Below are positions 30,577-35,232 of a stretch of DNA of 64,000 nucleotides, one piece after another (position 1 is the first letter of the stretch; each line of letters opens with the position of its first letter). The notes beneath the pieces were generated by a model. The model saw nothing but the letters and a program-made list of their open reading frames with translations, was not told the DNA's origin and did no database searches. This DNA comes from Candidatus Binatia bacterium (GTDB lineage: Bacteria > Desulfobacterota > Binatia > UBA9968 > JAJDTQ01), in assembly GCA_963666515.2 (NCBI GenBank), contig OY762897.2, forward strand, positions 3,488,001-3,552,000. The letters run 5' to 3'. A program made the translations under genes and the position numbers.

Positions 30577-31044
30577 CTACTTCCGTCCTGTCTCCCGTTG
30601 CGTCATGATCGCCAGCCGGGTGAGGCCGGCGGAGCGGGCGGCGTCCATCACTTCCACCACCACTCCGTGAGGCACGCGGCGGTCCGCGCGGATGAGCACC
30701 TGCGGGTCGCGGCGCTGTCCGGCCGTCGCGCGTTGCTCGCCGGTCCCCGGTTGTCCGGCTATCCGTTGCCGTGCGGTTTCCCGGAGCCTCGCGGCCAGCG
30801 CCGGGAGGGCCACCCGCTCCCCGTCCACACGGACCTCGCCCTCCGGCGTGACGAGGATGCGTATGTCGCCGTCCTCGCGCTCCACCTGCGGGGCGGAGGC
30901 GTCGGGCAGGTCCACGGTGATGCCGGGATTGGCCAGGAAGTTCATGGACAGGGCGAAGAAGATCAGCAGGTTGAAGATGGTGTCCACCACCGGCGTCATG
31001 TCGATGAAGCCGCCCGCCGGGGTTCTGCGTGGCCGGAAGTCCAT
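30577..31044 (-). CDS. exbD: Biopolymer transport protein ExbD/TolR
   Basis: IDMTPVVDTIFNLLIFF, VLIRADRRVPHGVVVEVMD. Confidence 0.9.
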   Translation of the reverse strand: MDFRPRRTPAGGFIDMTPVVDTIFNLLIFFALSMNFLANPGITVDLPDASAPQVEREDGDIRILVTPEGEVRVDGERVALPALAARLRETARQRIAGQPGTGEQRATAGQRRDPQVLIRADRRVPHGVVVEVMDAARSAGLTRLAIMTQRETGRK

Positions 31045-31045
31045 G

Positions 31046-31702
31046 TCAGTCGGTGTGCCCGTCGGCGCCGGCCCGGTCCGCCTCGGGACCGGCCGAGTCC
31101 ATCTCGGGACTGACCAGGTCCATGAAACGAGTGCACAGCCGCTCCATCTCCAGGATGAGGGCGTTGGCCTTGTTCAACAGGTAACGGTGCATCACGATGG
31201 TGGGGATGGCCACGCTCAGCCCGGCCAGGGTGGTGATCAGCGCCTCGGATATCCCGCCCGCCAGGGTGGCCGGGTTGACCGCGCTCTGGGTGGAGATCAC
31301 CGAGAAGACCTCGATCATGCCCGAGATGGTTCCCAGCAGGCCGAGCAGCGTGCTGACCCCGGCGATGGTCCCGAGGGTATCGACGAACCGCTCCAGCCCG
31401 GCCGCCTCCTGGCGCCCAGCCTCTTCCAGGTGTTGTTTCATGACGTCGCGACGTTGCGCCGATACCCGCAGCCCGGCCGCCAGCACCCTGGCGACGGCCG
31501 CCGGGCTCCGGTCCAGCAACTCCAGGGCCGCGGGCAGGTCACGGCCGGCCACCAGCGCCTCGGCCCGCCGCACCAGGTCTGCGGGGGCCACCCGCTGCCT
31601 TCTCAGGCTGAACAGCCGCTCGACGAAGATGGCCAGCGCCGTGATCGAGCACAGCAGGATCGGGACCATGAAGAACCCGCCCTTGCCGAGGAATTCGAGC
31701 AT
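31046..31702 (-). CDS. exbB: MotA/TolQ/ExbB proton channel protein
   Basis: LGTIAGVSTLLGLLGTISGMI, GISEALITTLAGLSVAIP. Confidence 0.9.
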   Translation of the reverse strand: MLEFLGKGGFFMVPILLCSITALAIFVERLFSLRRQRVAPADLVRRAEALVAGRDLPAALELLDRSPAAVARVLAAGLRVSAQRRDVMKQHLEEAGRQEAAGLERFVDTLGTIAGVSTLLGLLGTISGMIEVFSVISTQSAVNPATLAGGISEALITTLAGLSVAIPTIVMHRYLLNKANALILEMERLCTRFMDLVSPEMDSAGPEADRAGADGHTD

Positions 31703-31724
31703 GAGCGGCCAATATCATTTATTC

Positions 31725-31753
31725 TTGACTTCGGGTAAAGGCTGCACTAGAAT
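31725..31753 (+). promoter_or_regulatory. Sigma70-like promoter spanning the left junction of the putative mobile element
   Basis: TTGACT (31725-31730), 17 bp, TAGAAT (31748-31753). Confidence 0.5.
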
Positions 31754-31858
31754 CCTTGATCGACAGGATCTTGACTCAGGAAGACAAGATATTTGAACTG
31801 GACTTCGTTCGTACATGAATACTATCGTAGGCCATCGCGAGTTGTAACGCTCGGTAGT

Positions 31859-33466
31859 TTAAGCGACGAGCTTCGCCTCATCGCAAATGGCATCGAGGTT
31901 CCTGGTGATGGCGGCAAAGCGCCGATGGGTCTTGGTATTGCCGCTCACGGCGTCGGGCGCAAGATGGGCCAGGCCGGGGCGAAGGATGCGGTTGTAGACA
32001 CGCGTGTAGAACATCGCCACCTTGAGGCCGTGTTCGGTCAAGTGGTAGCGGTAGGCGCCGGGGATGCGCTCGATCAGGCCGTGCAGGCGCAGGCGTCTCA
32101 GGTCGTAACTCATTCGGCCCGGGCGCATTGGACTGGGATCGAGGCCCAGGAGTGCACCGAGGTGCCCGCGCAGGTCGCGGTTGGAGAAGCCGCGGGCCGA
32201 AAGAGTGAACAAGAGCAGGGCCTGCATCAGAGCCTGCACGCGCTCATCGGCGAAGCGCAGGGCCGAGGCGCGTTGTCCGTGGAACTCCAGGCCGCGTTGA
32301 TGGCGTTGGAGTTCGTCTTCACCCAGGGCACAGTCGTGGCTGATGGTTTCTATCTGCAACAGACGACGGTTGGCTGTGAAGCCGACCTGGCACAACGCCG
32401 CCAGGTTAGACAGCCGCCGGCCCAGGGCGAAGTCATAGGTGTCGTTGACGGTGGTCTCGGTGCGCAGCGCCTGCCCTTCCTTGTGGTACTGCTTGATGCG
32501 CGAGTGCTTGTAGTCCACGTGCAAGGAAGGGGTGACGCCTGCGGTGATGACCCGGGTACGGAACCGACCGGGGGTGCGCCGGGTGACCCGGCGCTGGAAG
32601 ATCAACTGCACCTGGCTGGGGCGACCGAGATCGAGGTTCTCGCGGATCACGTCCTCGAAAAAGACGCGGCCCGAGGCCGGGCGGTCGAGCACCTGGGTCA
32701 GGCTGAACTCCGCTTGCAGGATGGAGATGTCGTAGCGCAGACCGGCGCGACGGTCCTGAGGCGTATACGGATGCGGCAGGCGATCGAACCACTTGCGCGC
32801 CAGTCTGTCGATGAAAGCGGCATCGAAGCCTTCGCAGATCTGTTGCAGCGCCTCGGGGTCTCCGCAGCAGCGCACGCCGTTGTCCAAAGCCTCGAACGGG
32901 ATGCCGCGCTCGCGCAACTGGCACTTGGCGTACTCGTTGCCGTTGAGGCACAGCTTGCCGTTGTACGGGAAGTAGGTGCAGAACTTGATGAAGAACGGCC
33001 CCGCCTGTTTGTCCACGCAATAGAAATACACATGGTTGACCATCGCGGTAGACGAGACCACCCACGGATAGGTGACCCCGGTGTCCGGGTTCCGGCGCCG
33101 CTCGGTGCGCATCACACGGGCCTTCTCCTGCGCTATCCCGATGTACAAAACCCCTTCGGTTCCCTTGAACCGCCCCAGGTACTCCTGCGTCACCTCGTCC
33201 TTGCGCTGGCCCTTCTTGAAGTGCACCACCTCGATCTGCTCCCGCTCCGCAAAGTCCTTCACCGCCTGCACGAACTCCCGACTCTTGGGCGCCAGCGCCA
33301 CCGTCGACGCAAACCGCTGGCCATGGTGCTTGTGCAGATACCCCACTACCCCGCCCACGCTCTGCAACTGCGGCACATACAGGTTCAAGTACAGGCGATC
33401 CACCGACTCGTATTCCAGCGTCACGTGATCGCGCAATACTTCCGCTACGGTTTGTGGTAGGCTCAT
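31859..33466 (-). CDS. Putative transposase/initiator-like protein, 535 aa, with C-terminal winged helix
   Basis: SVDRLYLNLYVP, LQAEFS, RIKQYHKEGQALRTETTVND and wHTH-like GFSNRDLR...MSYDLRRLRLHGLIERIP...YHLT; no DDE or HUH motif recognised; function inferred. Confidence 0.75.
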   Translation of the reverse strand: MSLPQTVAEVLRDHVTLEYESVDRLYLNLYVPQLQSVGGVVGYLHKHHGQRFASTVALAPKSREFVQAVKDFAEREQIEVVHFKKGQRKDEVTQEYLGRFKGTEGVLYIGIAQEKARVMRTERRRNPDTGVTYPWVVSSTAMVNHVYFYCVDKQAGPFFIKFCTYFPYNGKLCLNGNEYAKCQLRERGIPFEALDNGVRCCGDPEALQQICEGFDAAFIDRLARKWFDRLPHPYTPQDRRAGLRYDISILQAEFSLTQVLDRPASGRVFFEDVIRENLDLGRPSQVQLIFQRRVTRRTPGRFRTRVITAGVTPSLHVDYKHSRIKQYHKEGQALRTETTVNDTYDFALGRRLSNLAALCQVGFTANRRLLQIETISHDCALGEDELQRHQRGLEFHGQRASALRFADERVQALMQALLLFTLSARGFSNRDLRGHLGALLGLDPSPMRPGRMSYDLRRLRLHGLIERIPGAYRYHLTEHGLKVAMFYTRVYNRILRPGLAHLAPDAVSGNTKTHRRFAAITRNLDAICDEAKLVA

Positions 33467-33470
33467 GTCC

Positions 33471-33574
33471 GGCTCCGGTTGCTTCGGGCTTTTATGCCCA
33501 TTTGACCCTTTGAGGTCCGACCTTGCAAGGTCCCATGACCAGGGATTCAATCCCTGCTACAAGCGACCGGAGCC
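33471..33574. other. Multi-branched (five-way junction) structured leader, RNA or ssDNA
   Basis: 14-bp closing stem 33471-33484/33561-33574 enclosing four hairpins (33486-33499, 33504-33517, 33519-33532, 33540-33556). Confidence 0.65.
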
Positions 33575-33704
33575 AATCCCCTTACCCCCTCGTCGGTCTG
33601 AGGCGAAGCCTCGCTAGATAATTCACCATCATTCATCAGCCCACCCATTGATCTATCGGTTCAGCGATCCGTCCACCGCTCAGGCACCCCGAAAGGAGAC
33701 GCGC

Positions 33705-33974
33705 ATGGCAGCGGCAAAGAAGAAGGCCCCGGCGAAAAAGGCTCCGGCGAAGAAAGCCGCTGCCAGGAAAGCGCCGGCGAAGAAGGCTGCGGCCCGCAAG
33801 GCTCCTGCCAAGAAAGCGCCCGCTAAGAAGGCCGCTGCCAGGAAGGCGCCCGCCAAGAAAGCGCCCGCTAAGAAGGCGCCGGCGAAGAAAGCTCCGGCAA
33901 AGAAGACGGCCTCCCGCAAGGCGCCCGCCAGAAAAGCCGCCGCCAAGAAGAAGGCGCCGGCCCGGAAGCGGTAG
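33705..33974 (+). CDS. Histone H1-like Lys/Ala/Pro-rich protein
   Basis: AAGGAG upstream; 89 aa made almost entirely of [10 protein letters not shown] pentapeptides with varied synonymous codons. Confidence 0.85.
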
Positions 33975-33995
33975 CGCCGGGACGTCCGCGCCGTC

Positions 33996-34724
33996 GTGGA
34001 CGACGTCAACCTGTTCGTGGCCTTCCTCGCCGGGGGCCTCTCTTTTCTCAGCCCCTGCGTGCTGCCGCTGATCCCGTCCTACCTGTCGTTCGTATCCGGC
34101 ATATCGCCCCGCGAGATGGGGGAGGGCGGTTCGGGCACGGCCCGGGTCATGGGCAACGCCGCGGCCTTCGTGTTCGGCTTCTCGGCCGCCTTCGTCGCCC
34201 TGGGGGCGTCCGCGAGCCTGCTGGGAAGGCTGCTGGTCGGGTACCAGGACGCGGTGCGCGTCGGCGGAGGCCTGTTCATCCTGGTGGTGGGACTTTACCT
34301 GACCGGGCTGTTCAAGGTCGCCACCCTGGAACGCTACGCGCAGTTCAACCTGCGCAGCAAACCGGCCGGCTATATCGGGTCGGTGCTGGTGGGGCTTACC
34401 TTTGCGGTGGCGTGGATACCCTGCGTGGGGCCGATCCTCGGAGCCATCCTGACGCTGGCCGGCGCCGCCGGCGAGGTCCACCGCGGCGTGCTGCTGCTGT
34501 CGGCCTACGCCGCCGGCTTGGCGCTGCCGTTCCTGCTGAGCGCCCTGGCCATGAACCGGTTCATCAGGGTCTCCCGCGCCGTCGGCCCCTGGCTGCCGGC
34601 CATCCACGTGTGCGCGGGCCTGCTCCTGGTCGCCGTCGGCTTCCTCCTGCTCACCGACAACATGACCGCCCTCAACGCCTACGCCCTCCGCCTCACCCCT
34701 GCCTGGCTGATCACACGGCTGTAG
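33996..34724 (+). CDS. ccdA: Cytochrome c biogenesis protein CcdA
   Basis: [14 protein letters not shown] and [10 protein letters not shown] redox cysteines. Confidence 0.93.
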
Positions 34725-34887
34725 CCGCGCGGCTTACGTAACGCGCAGCAACTCCCACAAGCCTCTCGGGCTGACAATCCGCAACCCCTCAACTGGCGGG
34801 GCATCCAGAAGGTCCTTGTCTCCGGATACCAGTCTTGTGTCACCACACTCCGTATATCCCTTAAATGCCTCCTACCAAGGGACGCGA

Positions 34888-34940
34888 TTGTCAAATCAAT
34901 TGTCTAGTGATACGCTTGTTAATACCGTTAAGTGCATCAC
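34888..34940 (+). promoter_or_regulatory. Putative promoter and operator of the Phd/RelE module
   Basis: TTGTCA (34888-34893), 17 bp, TACGCT (34911-34916); imperfect inverted repeat GTGATACGCTT (34907-34917)/AAGTGCATCAC (34930-34940) overlapping the -10. Confidence 0.5.
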
Positions 34941-34950
34941 AGGAGTTCTG

Positions 34951-35232
34951 ATGGCGAAATTACCCCAAATTATACCCGTGACCGACCTGCGGCAGGATGC
35001 GGCGGCCGTGTTGAAGCGAGTCGGCGAATCGCGCGAGCCCTTCGTCATTACCCAGCGCGGCCGGGCGGCGGCGGTGCTGCTGAGTGCGGAAGCGTACCAG
35101 CGTGCGGAGTCTGAACGGCAAATGCTCAGGCTGCTGGCGCAAGGGGAGAAGGAGATCGCCGAGGGGCAGGGTACCGACCTGGACACTGTGCTGGCGGAAG
35201 CCGACGCGCTGCTCGCGGATGAAGATTCGTGA
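34951..35232 (+). CDS. Phd/YefM-family antitoxin
   Basis: IIPVTDLRQDAA...EPFVITQRGRAAAVLLS; AGGAG upstream; overlaps the toxin start (GTGA). Confidence 0.9.
   Translation: MAKLPQIIPVTDLRQDAAAVLKRVGESREPFVITQRGRAAAVLLSAEAYQRAESERQMLRLLAQGEKEIAEGQGTDLDTVLAEADALLADEDS

Follow-up and report, generated by a model that had tools for sequence, protein, structure and literature searches.

The window, i.e. the stretch of 64,000 nucleotides (nt) of a Candidatus Binatia genome that was analyzed, carries on its − strand a mobile element of 1,871 bp (31747-33617, including the CTAG at both ends), delimited by aligning copies of it together with their flanks. Its gene (31859-33466, − strand), recognized as a translated open reading frame (ORF), encodes a protein of 535 amino acids (aa), P0001, a putative transposase of no known family. 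A multi-branched junction (33471-33574) lies immediately upstream of this gene. The explanation that best accommodates the evidence, with a probability of roughly 0.45, is that the junction would be the body of a small antisense non-coding RNA (ncRNA) made by this insertion sequence (IS), its chief role being the repression of transposase synthesis.

According to this explanation, an extended −10 element located within codons 2-4 of the gene and pointing outward would start transcription on the + strand at the first G of the closing stem of the junction (~33471). The predicted RNA would fold into this stem plus three or four hairpins (33471-33574), and would continue past the CTCGTCGGTCT motif and a GNA hairpin to the element end at 33617, possibly further; as no terminator is visible, it may enter the flank. 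By pairing with the leader of the transposase mRNA it would hold down transposase synthesis, thus acting as a copy-number control of the kind of RNA-OUT (IS10) or art200 (IS200). Repression seems the likeliest job because the predicted RNA is exactly complementary to the leader of the transposase mRNA, its GGAG site included: it would begin at a distance of 3-5 nt from the start codon with GGCUCC, the complement of the Shine-Dalgarno sequence GGAGCC. The production of such an RNA, the position of its 3′ end and its repressive effect are what we infer from the observed structure, its covariation, an asymmetry between strands and a promoter motif.

Structure of the junction

The closing stem (P1) is formed by the 5′ arm GGCTCCGGTTGCTT (33471-33484, + strand), which bears the predicted +1 of the antisense RNA at 33471 and complements the Shine-Dalgarno of the gene, and by the 3′ arm AAGCGACCGGAGCC (33561-33574, + strand), recognized by the inverted-repeat search and in the homologue alignments. 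In that search the two arms, of 14 nt, were 93% complementary with one imperfect pair. The stem encloses four hairpins, all of them read on the + strand and present in the minimum free energy (MFE) folds: GGGC-TTTTAT-GCCC (33486-33499), which is the P4 of homologues and covaries there; GACC-CTTTGA-GGTC (33504-33517) and GACCT-TGCA-AGGTC (33519-33532), the two copies of a duplicated P3 (33504-33532) that also covaries in homologues; and CAGGGAT-TCA-ATCCCTG (33540-33556), which is P2, a variable hairpin included in the covariation test. This pairing of the arms around four hairpins, proposed in a preliminary description of the DNA, was borne out by the sequence, by the inverted-repeat search and by the MFE folds of both strands. 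The name of five-way junction used there is right for the window element and for one homologue (L021), the only two in which an inner hairpin (P3) is duplicated, giving four; it does not extend to most homologues, in which there are usually three, making a four-way junction.

The ATG of the gene is the complement of 33464-33466, which leaves 4 nt between it and the stem, and the Shine-Dalgarno GGAG was found inside the stem arm, in agreement with the earlier statement that the stem would cover the ribosome-binding region. Read on the + strand, the imperfect pair of the window stem is indeed T·G, and read on the mRNA strand it is C·A; the GCGAAGC hairpin reported on the + strand is present within GAGGC-GAA-GCCTC (33600-33612).

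When 156 nt were folded as RNA, the + strand gave −64.5 kcal/mol (z −4.84) and the − strand −65.7 kcal/mol (z −3.28). The 147 nt of 33471-33617 gave −64.3 kcal/mol for the + strand as RNA (z −5.82) and −30.4 kcal/mol as DNA (z −4.38). In none of these four fold tests did any of 200 dinucleotide shuffles match the native energy; the junction folds better than the shuffled controls that the preliminary description had proposed for comparison.

A check of 31000-35000 on both strands against Rfam release 15 (cmscan, E ≤ 10) returned four rows at chance level, none of them within 33471-33617, and a search of the window for tRNA and transfer-messenger RNA found none. A + strand ORF of 50 codons (33465-33617) was considered as a gene and rejected: its ATG is upstream of the predicted RNA start, and the CATG that creates this ATG is not conserved.

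Conservation and covariation among homologues

A scan of one genome per species yielded 80 loci, with relatives at 58-75% identity, which by their record titles span at least nine phyla (Pseudomonadota, Acidobacteriota, Chloroflexota, Planctomycetota, Gemmatimonadota, Actinomycetota, Verrucomicrobiota, Latescibacterota and Candidatus Binatia). With the window there were 81 leaders, 79 of which showed the pattern of GGAG followed by the start codon (L026 and L058 were dropped). They contained 57 distinct leaders of 135 nt, reduced to 56 by leaving out L049, where the stem was not cleanly found. The plan shared by the homologues consists of the element end CTA[A/G]-C-GAGGC-NNN-GCCTC-AGACCGACGAG, a variable spacer, the stem GGCTCCGGTCG...CGACCGGAGCC with the inner hairpins, 3-5 nt, and the start codon. 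In all 56 sequences GGAG is located within the stem arm and is separated from the start codon by 3-5 nt.

Leader alignments obtained with MAFFT (A3, A4) were rejected: the inner hairpins were misaligned, and RNAalifold recovered from them eight stem pairs only. For this reason they were replaced by covariance models built on four well-aligned seeds, as mirror images for the gene strand (A5/R1) and the antisense strand (A6/R2), to which the other leaders were aligned. The antisense alignment (A9) comprised 52 distinct rows; 97.3% of its 1,388 pair cells were paired, and double changes were seen in 28 of 29 pairs, including 18 of 18 inner pairs. The covariation score was 0.496 compared to 0.168 in shuffles, with none of 500 shuffles reaching any of the measures, and when the partners were slid by 1-3 columns the pairing was 49% at most. 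The gene-strand alignment (A10, 51 rows) was 94.8% paired under the same controls. The structure described from a single sequence is thus strongly supported by the conservation and covariation of homologue leaders, and we take it as practically certain that it is real and selected.

The two models R1 and R2 missed L093 and L096, which contain an extra hairpin and where the fold is visible by eye, and they gave no match in the leaders of L012-L018, L026 and L058, which are distant or truncated relatives. Within the window's genome, nine of nine matches to the RNA model correspond to the nine copies of the element, adjoining the gene. A Rhodococcus homologue with 53% identity keeps the end motif, the stem and TATGGT-CAT, and a Mycobacterium homologue with 41% identity has diverged. 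Two more distant relatives (L013 and L015, 25-29% identity) are devoid of the junction and have in common another upstream hairpin, roughly TAACCCGG-N-CCGGAACCAnACAGG(G)TTA; a structured leader of a different kind may thus be a trait of the wider superfamily.

Strand asymmetry

Considering the closing stem as 594 cells (54 distinct sequences by 11 pairs) read in gene sense, 556 were Watson-Crick pairs, 36 were A·C or C·A, two were G·T and none was of another class. On the antisense strand the 36 mismatches become G·U, and the two G·T become A·C. The indication of the + strand as the folding one, which the preliminary description had drawn from one imperfect pair, holds therefore across homologues. 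The pairing of helix 1 was 99.7% on the antisense strand (A9) versus 94.7% on the sense strand (A10). When the strands were folded separately and a wobble was accepted only if flanked by two Watson-Crick pairs on each side, the closing stem showed 29 antisense wobbles versus one sense wobble. The stem wobbles occupy at least seven positions in both arms, arise from G-to-A as well as T-to-C changes (gene sense), and coexist with fully compensated versions of the stem, such as GGACTCC/GGAGTCC (L037, L093) and CCAGT/ACTGG. Wobbles beside compensated versions are the pattern that would be expected if G·U were a tolerated intermediate on the strand that folds.

The hairpin loops were compared in stems of at least 4 bp. 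The antisense strand displayed 25 UNCG loops, 21 of them closed by C-G and with C(TTCG)G accounting for 18, in addition to 16 C(CTCG)G; the sense strand displayed no UNCG and four GNRA loops. The cUUCGg and YNMG loops are unusually stable in RNA. For the hairpin at the element terminus, 44 of 53 distinct ends have a GNA loop when read on the antisense (+) strand. The strands were not separated by whole-structure energies (the antisense was the stabler in 29 of 56 sequences, with a mean difference of −0.6 kcal/mol) or by the bit scores of R1 and R2, which were within a few bits of each other. Three independent features (stem wobbles, loops and terminal hairpin) point to the + strand of the window, antisense to the gene, and the fold probably forms as antisense RNA.

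Predicted antisense promoter motif

Codons 2-4 of the gene contain the predicted extended −10, TG(G)TAGGCT (33455-33463, + strand), for which the predicted +1 is 33471. On the antisense strand the start codon reads as CAT, and the six bases immediately 5′ of it are TAnnnT in 54 of the 56 distinct sequences, with TG one base upstream in 43. The last T of the −10 precedes the initial base of the closing stem by 7 nt in 42 sequences, by 6 nt in seven and by 8 nt in the other seven. This geometry is that expected of an extended −10 sigma-70 promoter which would start at the first G of the stem.

Codon usage shows that the TG-n-TAnnnT motif is held at the nucleotide level and not at the protein level. 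Codon 3 is NTA (GTA, ATA, CTA or TTA) in 55 of 56 sequences, with the amino acid varying among V, I and L, and in the remainder of these ORFs NTA represents 4.4% of 6,336 V/L/I codons. At codon 4, NCA is present in 43 of 56 sequences, versus 8.2% of the P/A/S/T codons elsewhere. Concerning the sense direction, no TAnnnT comparably conserved among homologues was found upstream of the stem, and an nTGTAt motif that follows the end motif is moderately conserved only.

Three functions had been proposed for the junction: a folded single-stranded DNA (ssDNA) site, a translation-repressing leader and an element-encoded ncRNA. The third, read from the + strand, fits best because the conserved antisense extended −10 is positioned to start at the first base of the stem. 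The mRNA leader is disfavoured as a main role since the mismatches of the stem fall on its mRNA-strand version. A folded ssDNA site is less likely than the ncRNA, and would apply most readily to the terminal GNA hairpin.

Alternative explanations

Several points weigh against an antisense repressor. The transcript and both of its ends are predicted from sequence. No −35 element is evident at the antisense −10, and the promoter scan, which demands one, omits the site; in the window, no intrinsic terminator was found after the junction or after the terminal hairpin. The inner hairpins show no wobble asymmetry (seven sense versus five antisense, in counts that depend on the alignment), and the G·T wobbles and GNA loops fit ssDNA equally well. 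The covariance-model alignments, being fitted to the structure, lean towards it, and as the homologues are related the cell counts are not independent events. Lastly, a four-way junction kept across phyla is not obviously needed by a simple antisense repressor.

In another reading, the antisense RNA would be a working part of transposition, either a scaffold or a guide bound by the 535-aa protein, in analogy to the bridge RNA of IS110, the seekRNA of IS1111 or the omega-RNA of TnpB/IscB. The RNA could also carry flanking sequence at its 3′ end, because it would read out through the element end (YUAG). The protein would then work as a ribonucleoprotein that needs the junction RNA to recognize or join DNA at CTAG, and the element would add a third RNA-dependent system of transposition to those of the IS110 bridge RNAs and the TnpB/IscB omega-RNAs. 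Everything that speaks for an antisense RNA (stem wobbles, loops, promoter and covariation) applies equally here, and the maintenance of the architecture in at least nine phyla, while the inner stem sequences change freely, exceeds what a plain repressor needs. A protein without a recognisable catalytic fold makes an unusual mechanism possible; all nine RNA-model matches in the window's genome sit in element copies beside the gene; and the element, devoid of inverted repeats, is bounded by a short core, CTAG. However, the target is CTAG only, with no further conservation in the flanks, which makes a programmable guide unnecessary. Also, both ends were defined in 44 of 56 elements; when the predicted RNA of each was compared with the final 45 nt of its opposite end, the longest stretch of exact, ungapped complementarity was of 4-9 nt, compared to a shuffle mean of ~6.3 and a shuffle maximum of 7-11, and the unpaired bases of the junction are weakly conserved. 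On balance, both the role in transposition and the ribonucleoprotein that it entails appear unlikely.

Somewhat more doubtful is that the + strand folds as ssDNA, with hairpins read by the transposase on a single active strand, in a movement like that of IS200/IS605 or IS91; insertion would take place 3′ of CTAG, and the element would bring a YTAG of its own at the opposite end. The G·T wobbles of the stem on the + strand only, and the terminal C-GNA-G on that strand in 44 of 53 ends, would find a natural place here, as hairpins of the d(GCGNAGC) type are stable DNA mini-hairpins. The same can be said of the lack of inverted repeats, of the hairpins located a few bases from both ends, of the unequal boundary tetranucleotides (CTAA in 40 and CTAG in 11 of 53 gene-5′ ends, CTAG on the gene-3′ side) and of the good folding of the + strand as DNA (z −4.38). 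Nevertheless, a DNA fold leaves unexplained the TG-n-TAnnnT motif fixed 6-8 nt before the stem, and the abundant C(TTCG)G loops are a hallmark of RNA rather than DNA stability. Moreover, the protein gave no match to Y1 or Y2 HUH families (Pfam, E ≤ 1), no His-hydrophobic-His motif was seen on reading its consensus, and the hairpins read by known ssDNA transposases are close to the tips, unlike the junction, which lies 43 nt inward of the end.

An mRNA-leader fold, in which the closing stem would hide the Shine-Dalgarno and keep translation low or limited to certain transcripts, is improbable as the main role. It is consistent with the constant position of GGAG (56/56), within the stem arm and 3-5 nt before the start codon, and with the good folding of the mRNA strand (−65.7 kcal/mol, z −3.28; 94.8% paired across homologues). 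According to PMC4513863, IS200 combines such a structure with an antisense RNA, and both could thus coexist also in this element. Yet the mismatches tolerated in the stem break the mRNA-strand helix and not the antisense one (36 versus 2), the stable loop motifs read on the opposite strand, and no conserved sense promoter was found among homologues that would define transcripts carrying the 5′ arm. The possibility that stem arms and hairpins are just inverted-repeat sites in duplex DNA for a winged-helix protein, without any nucleic-acid fold, is very remote: it would suit the C-terminal winged helix of P0001 (Z 8.5), the nearly invariant sequence of the stem arms and the recurrence of a similar word, CTCG-W-C-GG, in the end motif, but it is contradicted by the free covariation of 18/18 inner pairs, and symmetric half-sites would not yield the 36-to-2 excess of one mismatch class.

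The mobile element and its ends

A DNA search of the window's genome found nine copies of the element with 100% identity (L001-L009) and one degenerate fragment. The nine copies have unrelated flanks, are all bounded as CTAG...CTAG, lack terminal inverted repeats and contain a single gene. The fragment (L010, G000:C1:2645461-2645643) is a degenerate relic with 90-92% identity, in which a deletion joins ~33111 to 33438, and the same skip of 327 nt (33110 to 33438) appears in contigs of runs X1-X3.

The end on the gene-5′ side (33589-33617, + strand) is conserved and consists of CTCGTCGGTCT, the hairpin GAGGC-GAA-GCCTC (33600-33612), a G and CTAG. In 53 distinct ends, drawn from 73 of the 81 leaders (the motif was missing from the available DNA of the remaining ones), the end motif AGACCGACGAG, in gene sense, is nearly invariant, and the stem of the terminal hairpin covaries: GAGGC/GCCTC in 47, GGGGC/GCCCC in five and GGGGT/ACCCC in one. 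The other end (31747-31769, + strand), established from the copy alignment and from the ends inspected, is formed by CTAG followed by the hairpin ATCCT-TGATCGAC-AGGAT (31752-31769). Of the 53 ends on the gene-5′ side, 40 have CTAA and 11 have CTAG as the bounding tetranucleotide; on the gene-3′ side it is CTAG in 12 of 12 aligned multi-copy 3′ ends and in those of the inspected 3′ ends where one was recognisable. The bounding tetranucleotides are CTAR versus CTAG, unequal in 40 of 53 ends, which would argue against a plain 4-bp target duplication.

On the gene strand, the 3′ ends of homologues read ...CAAG-N3-6-CTAG. In most homologues (L021-L096) AACTTGACTCA directly follows the stop codon, with (T)CAAG-N3-6-CTAG some 20-25 nt beyond, so that a CTTGA(C)/(G)TCAAG hairpin is possible. 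The window element has a longer 3′ region, with the word TTGACTCA on the opposite strand. At this end, a promoter-like site (31725-31753, + strand; 10/12 matches) combines TTGACT in the flank with TAGAAT from the first bases of the element, and reads into the element; in homologues whose 3′ ends were inspected the first bases are likewise TAGAnT or TAGTGT on the same strand. On the outward side, the predicted antisense promoter is aimed at a gene of 15-nt repeats located directly downstream of the element end (33707-33974, + strand), whose Ala/Lys/Pro-rich, AKKAP-like product resembles a histone-H1 tail.

The contigs of four metagenome runs, of unrecorded type, gave for the element a depth of ~8-12 times that of its flanks, and neither an empty site nor a circle junction was seen in them. 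The segment 33550-33635, which includes the final 70-85 nt of the element (stem 3′ arm, end motif and GNA hairpin), was covered 3-4 times as deeply as the element body by the contigs of runs X2 and X3, and was abundant in X5, a run of a different organism (626 versus ~3). The raised depth fits an end common to many related elements. Two junction motifs in opposite orientations occur within ~700 bp of one Chloroflexia contig (L050:369-468 and L050:1098-1198), which suggests two elements placed head to head.

The 535-aa protein

The searches for the family of P0001 gave a single match in Pfam (hmmscan, E ≤ 1), to AbiEi_4 with a sub-threshold E of 0.06, and none in NCBIfam at E ≤ 1. Among the matches listed there were more than 8,000 homologous clusters at 90% identity, all of them unnamed or "hypothetical" and mostly on contigs of ~1.8-2 kb. 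In a plasmid collection, the annotated matches were "hypothetical protein" or similar, including homologues of Burkholderia, Caballeronia, Rhodococcus and Mycobacterium, with the exception of a weak one (25% identity) to a gene annotated as "ArsR family transcriptional regulator". Cultured carriers of family members include Cupriavidus ulmosensis CV2 (L034), Rhodococcus koreensis and, on plasmids, Caballeronia sp. SBC2 and Burkholderia sp. YI23. The ESM Atlas gave "hypothetical" clusters only.

The AlphaFold model contains a C-terminal winged helix (Z 8.5, root mean square deviation 3.3 Å, 95 residues aligned with VIA-align) and a confidently folded N-terminal domain (predicted local distance difference test score 85). 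For residues 1-270, VIA-align found in the PDB only weak resemblances to TATA-binding-protein-like or helix-grip folds (Z ≤ 5.2). Foldseek against the PDB, with either the whole protein or the N-terminal domain, gave nothing at E ≤ 0.001, and a profile search of PDB sequences at E ≤ 1 gave rows at chance level only.

The best-conserved stretch of the protein, SLHVDYKxSRIKQYHKEGQALRTETTIND, comprises residues ~317-345 (32432-32517) and falls in a low-confidence region of the model; in the metagenome runs, the contig depth of this segment was 5-7 times that found elsewhere in the element. It abounds in invariant H, D, Y, K and R residues, and for this reason may be the catalytic centre.

Novelty and significance

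A full-text literature search on CTAG insertion sequences without inverted repeats, and on RNA-guided transposase families from 2024, recovered no paper on this element family. Antisense RNAs of insertion sequences are already known as a kind. What appears new, judging from the comparisons made here, is the multi-branched architecture, a promoter placed in codons 2-4, a start exactly at the closing stem and an abundant, unclassified host element.

The family is very abundant, yet it is carried in databases as "hypothetical protein" and without a match to transposase families. The conserved, covarying structure, together with the codon-embedded promoter motif, can serve as an annotation marker for these elements, and the junction is a possible entry to the chemistry of their transposition. 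If the RNA only represses, it would be a new and unusually elaborate antisense control of copy number; if the protein needs it, this would be a new RNA-dependent mobile element. In addition, the predicted outward promoter may drive genes adjoining the insertion sites.

Comparison with known systems

The ends of IS200/IS605 elements resemble those described here in the hairpins near both ends, the lack of inverted repeats, the unequal tetranucleotides, and the GNA loops and wobbles of one strand. They differ in that the element studied has a multi-branch fold of 100 nt located 43 nt inside the end, with a promoter motif at its first base. Its protein gave no match to Y1_Tnp, OrfB_IS605 or OrfB_Zn_ribbon at E ≤ 1, and none to HUH transposases.

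In IS200/IS605 and IS607 elements, the omega-RNA or reRNA of TnpB and IscB is a structured RNA that overlaps the transposon end and reads across the boundary, beside the target motif. In contrast, the element of the window encodes no RuvC or OrfB_IS605 domain (Pfam, E ≤ 1) and no separate transposase gene, and the orientation of its predicted RNA is opposite to the gene.

The bridge RNA of IS110 and the seekRNA of IS1111, as presented in PMC11208160 and PMC11187229, belong likewise to single-gene elements with no inverted repeats, a short bounding core and a structured ncRNA located in the non-coding end beside the gene. However, P0001 has no match to DEDD_Tnp_IS110 or Transposase_20 (Pfam, E ≤ 1), the RNA predicted here reads antisense to the gene, CTAG is a fixed target, and the exact complementarity to the other end is at chance level.

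A closer parallel is found in IS200 itself. In PMC4513863, art200 is described as a small RNA opposite the 5′ untranslated region of tnpA, which blocks the initiation of translation, and the structure of that region as repressing translation independently of art200. The element described here is similar in lacking inverted repeats and having hairpins near its ends. The differences are the lack of a match to a Y1 transposase (Pfam, E ≤ 1) or to Rfam (E ≤ 10), and the multi-branched fold.

Fold-back inhibition of translation occurs in IS10 and IS50. In IS10/Tn10, an outward promoter inside the element end produces RNA-OUT, a stably folded RNA complementary to the ribosome-binding region of the transposase; it consists of one stem-loop, ~70 nt long, and overlaps the start codon. 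Compared to it, the predicted RNA would form a four- or five-way junction of ~90-105 nt followed by at least 43 nt more, would start 3-5 nt short of the start codon, and would depend on a promoter inside codons 2-4, in an unrelated IS family with an unrelated protein. It would share with RNA-OUT an outward promoter inside the element and complementarity to the ribosome-binding region.

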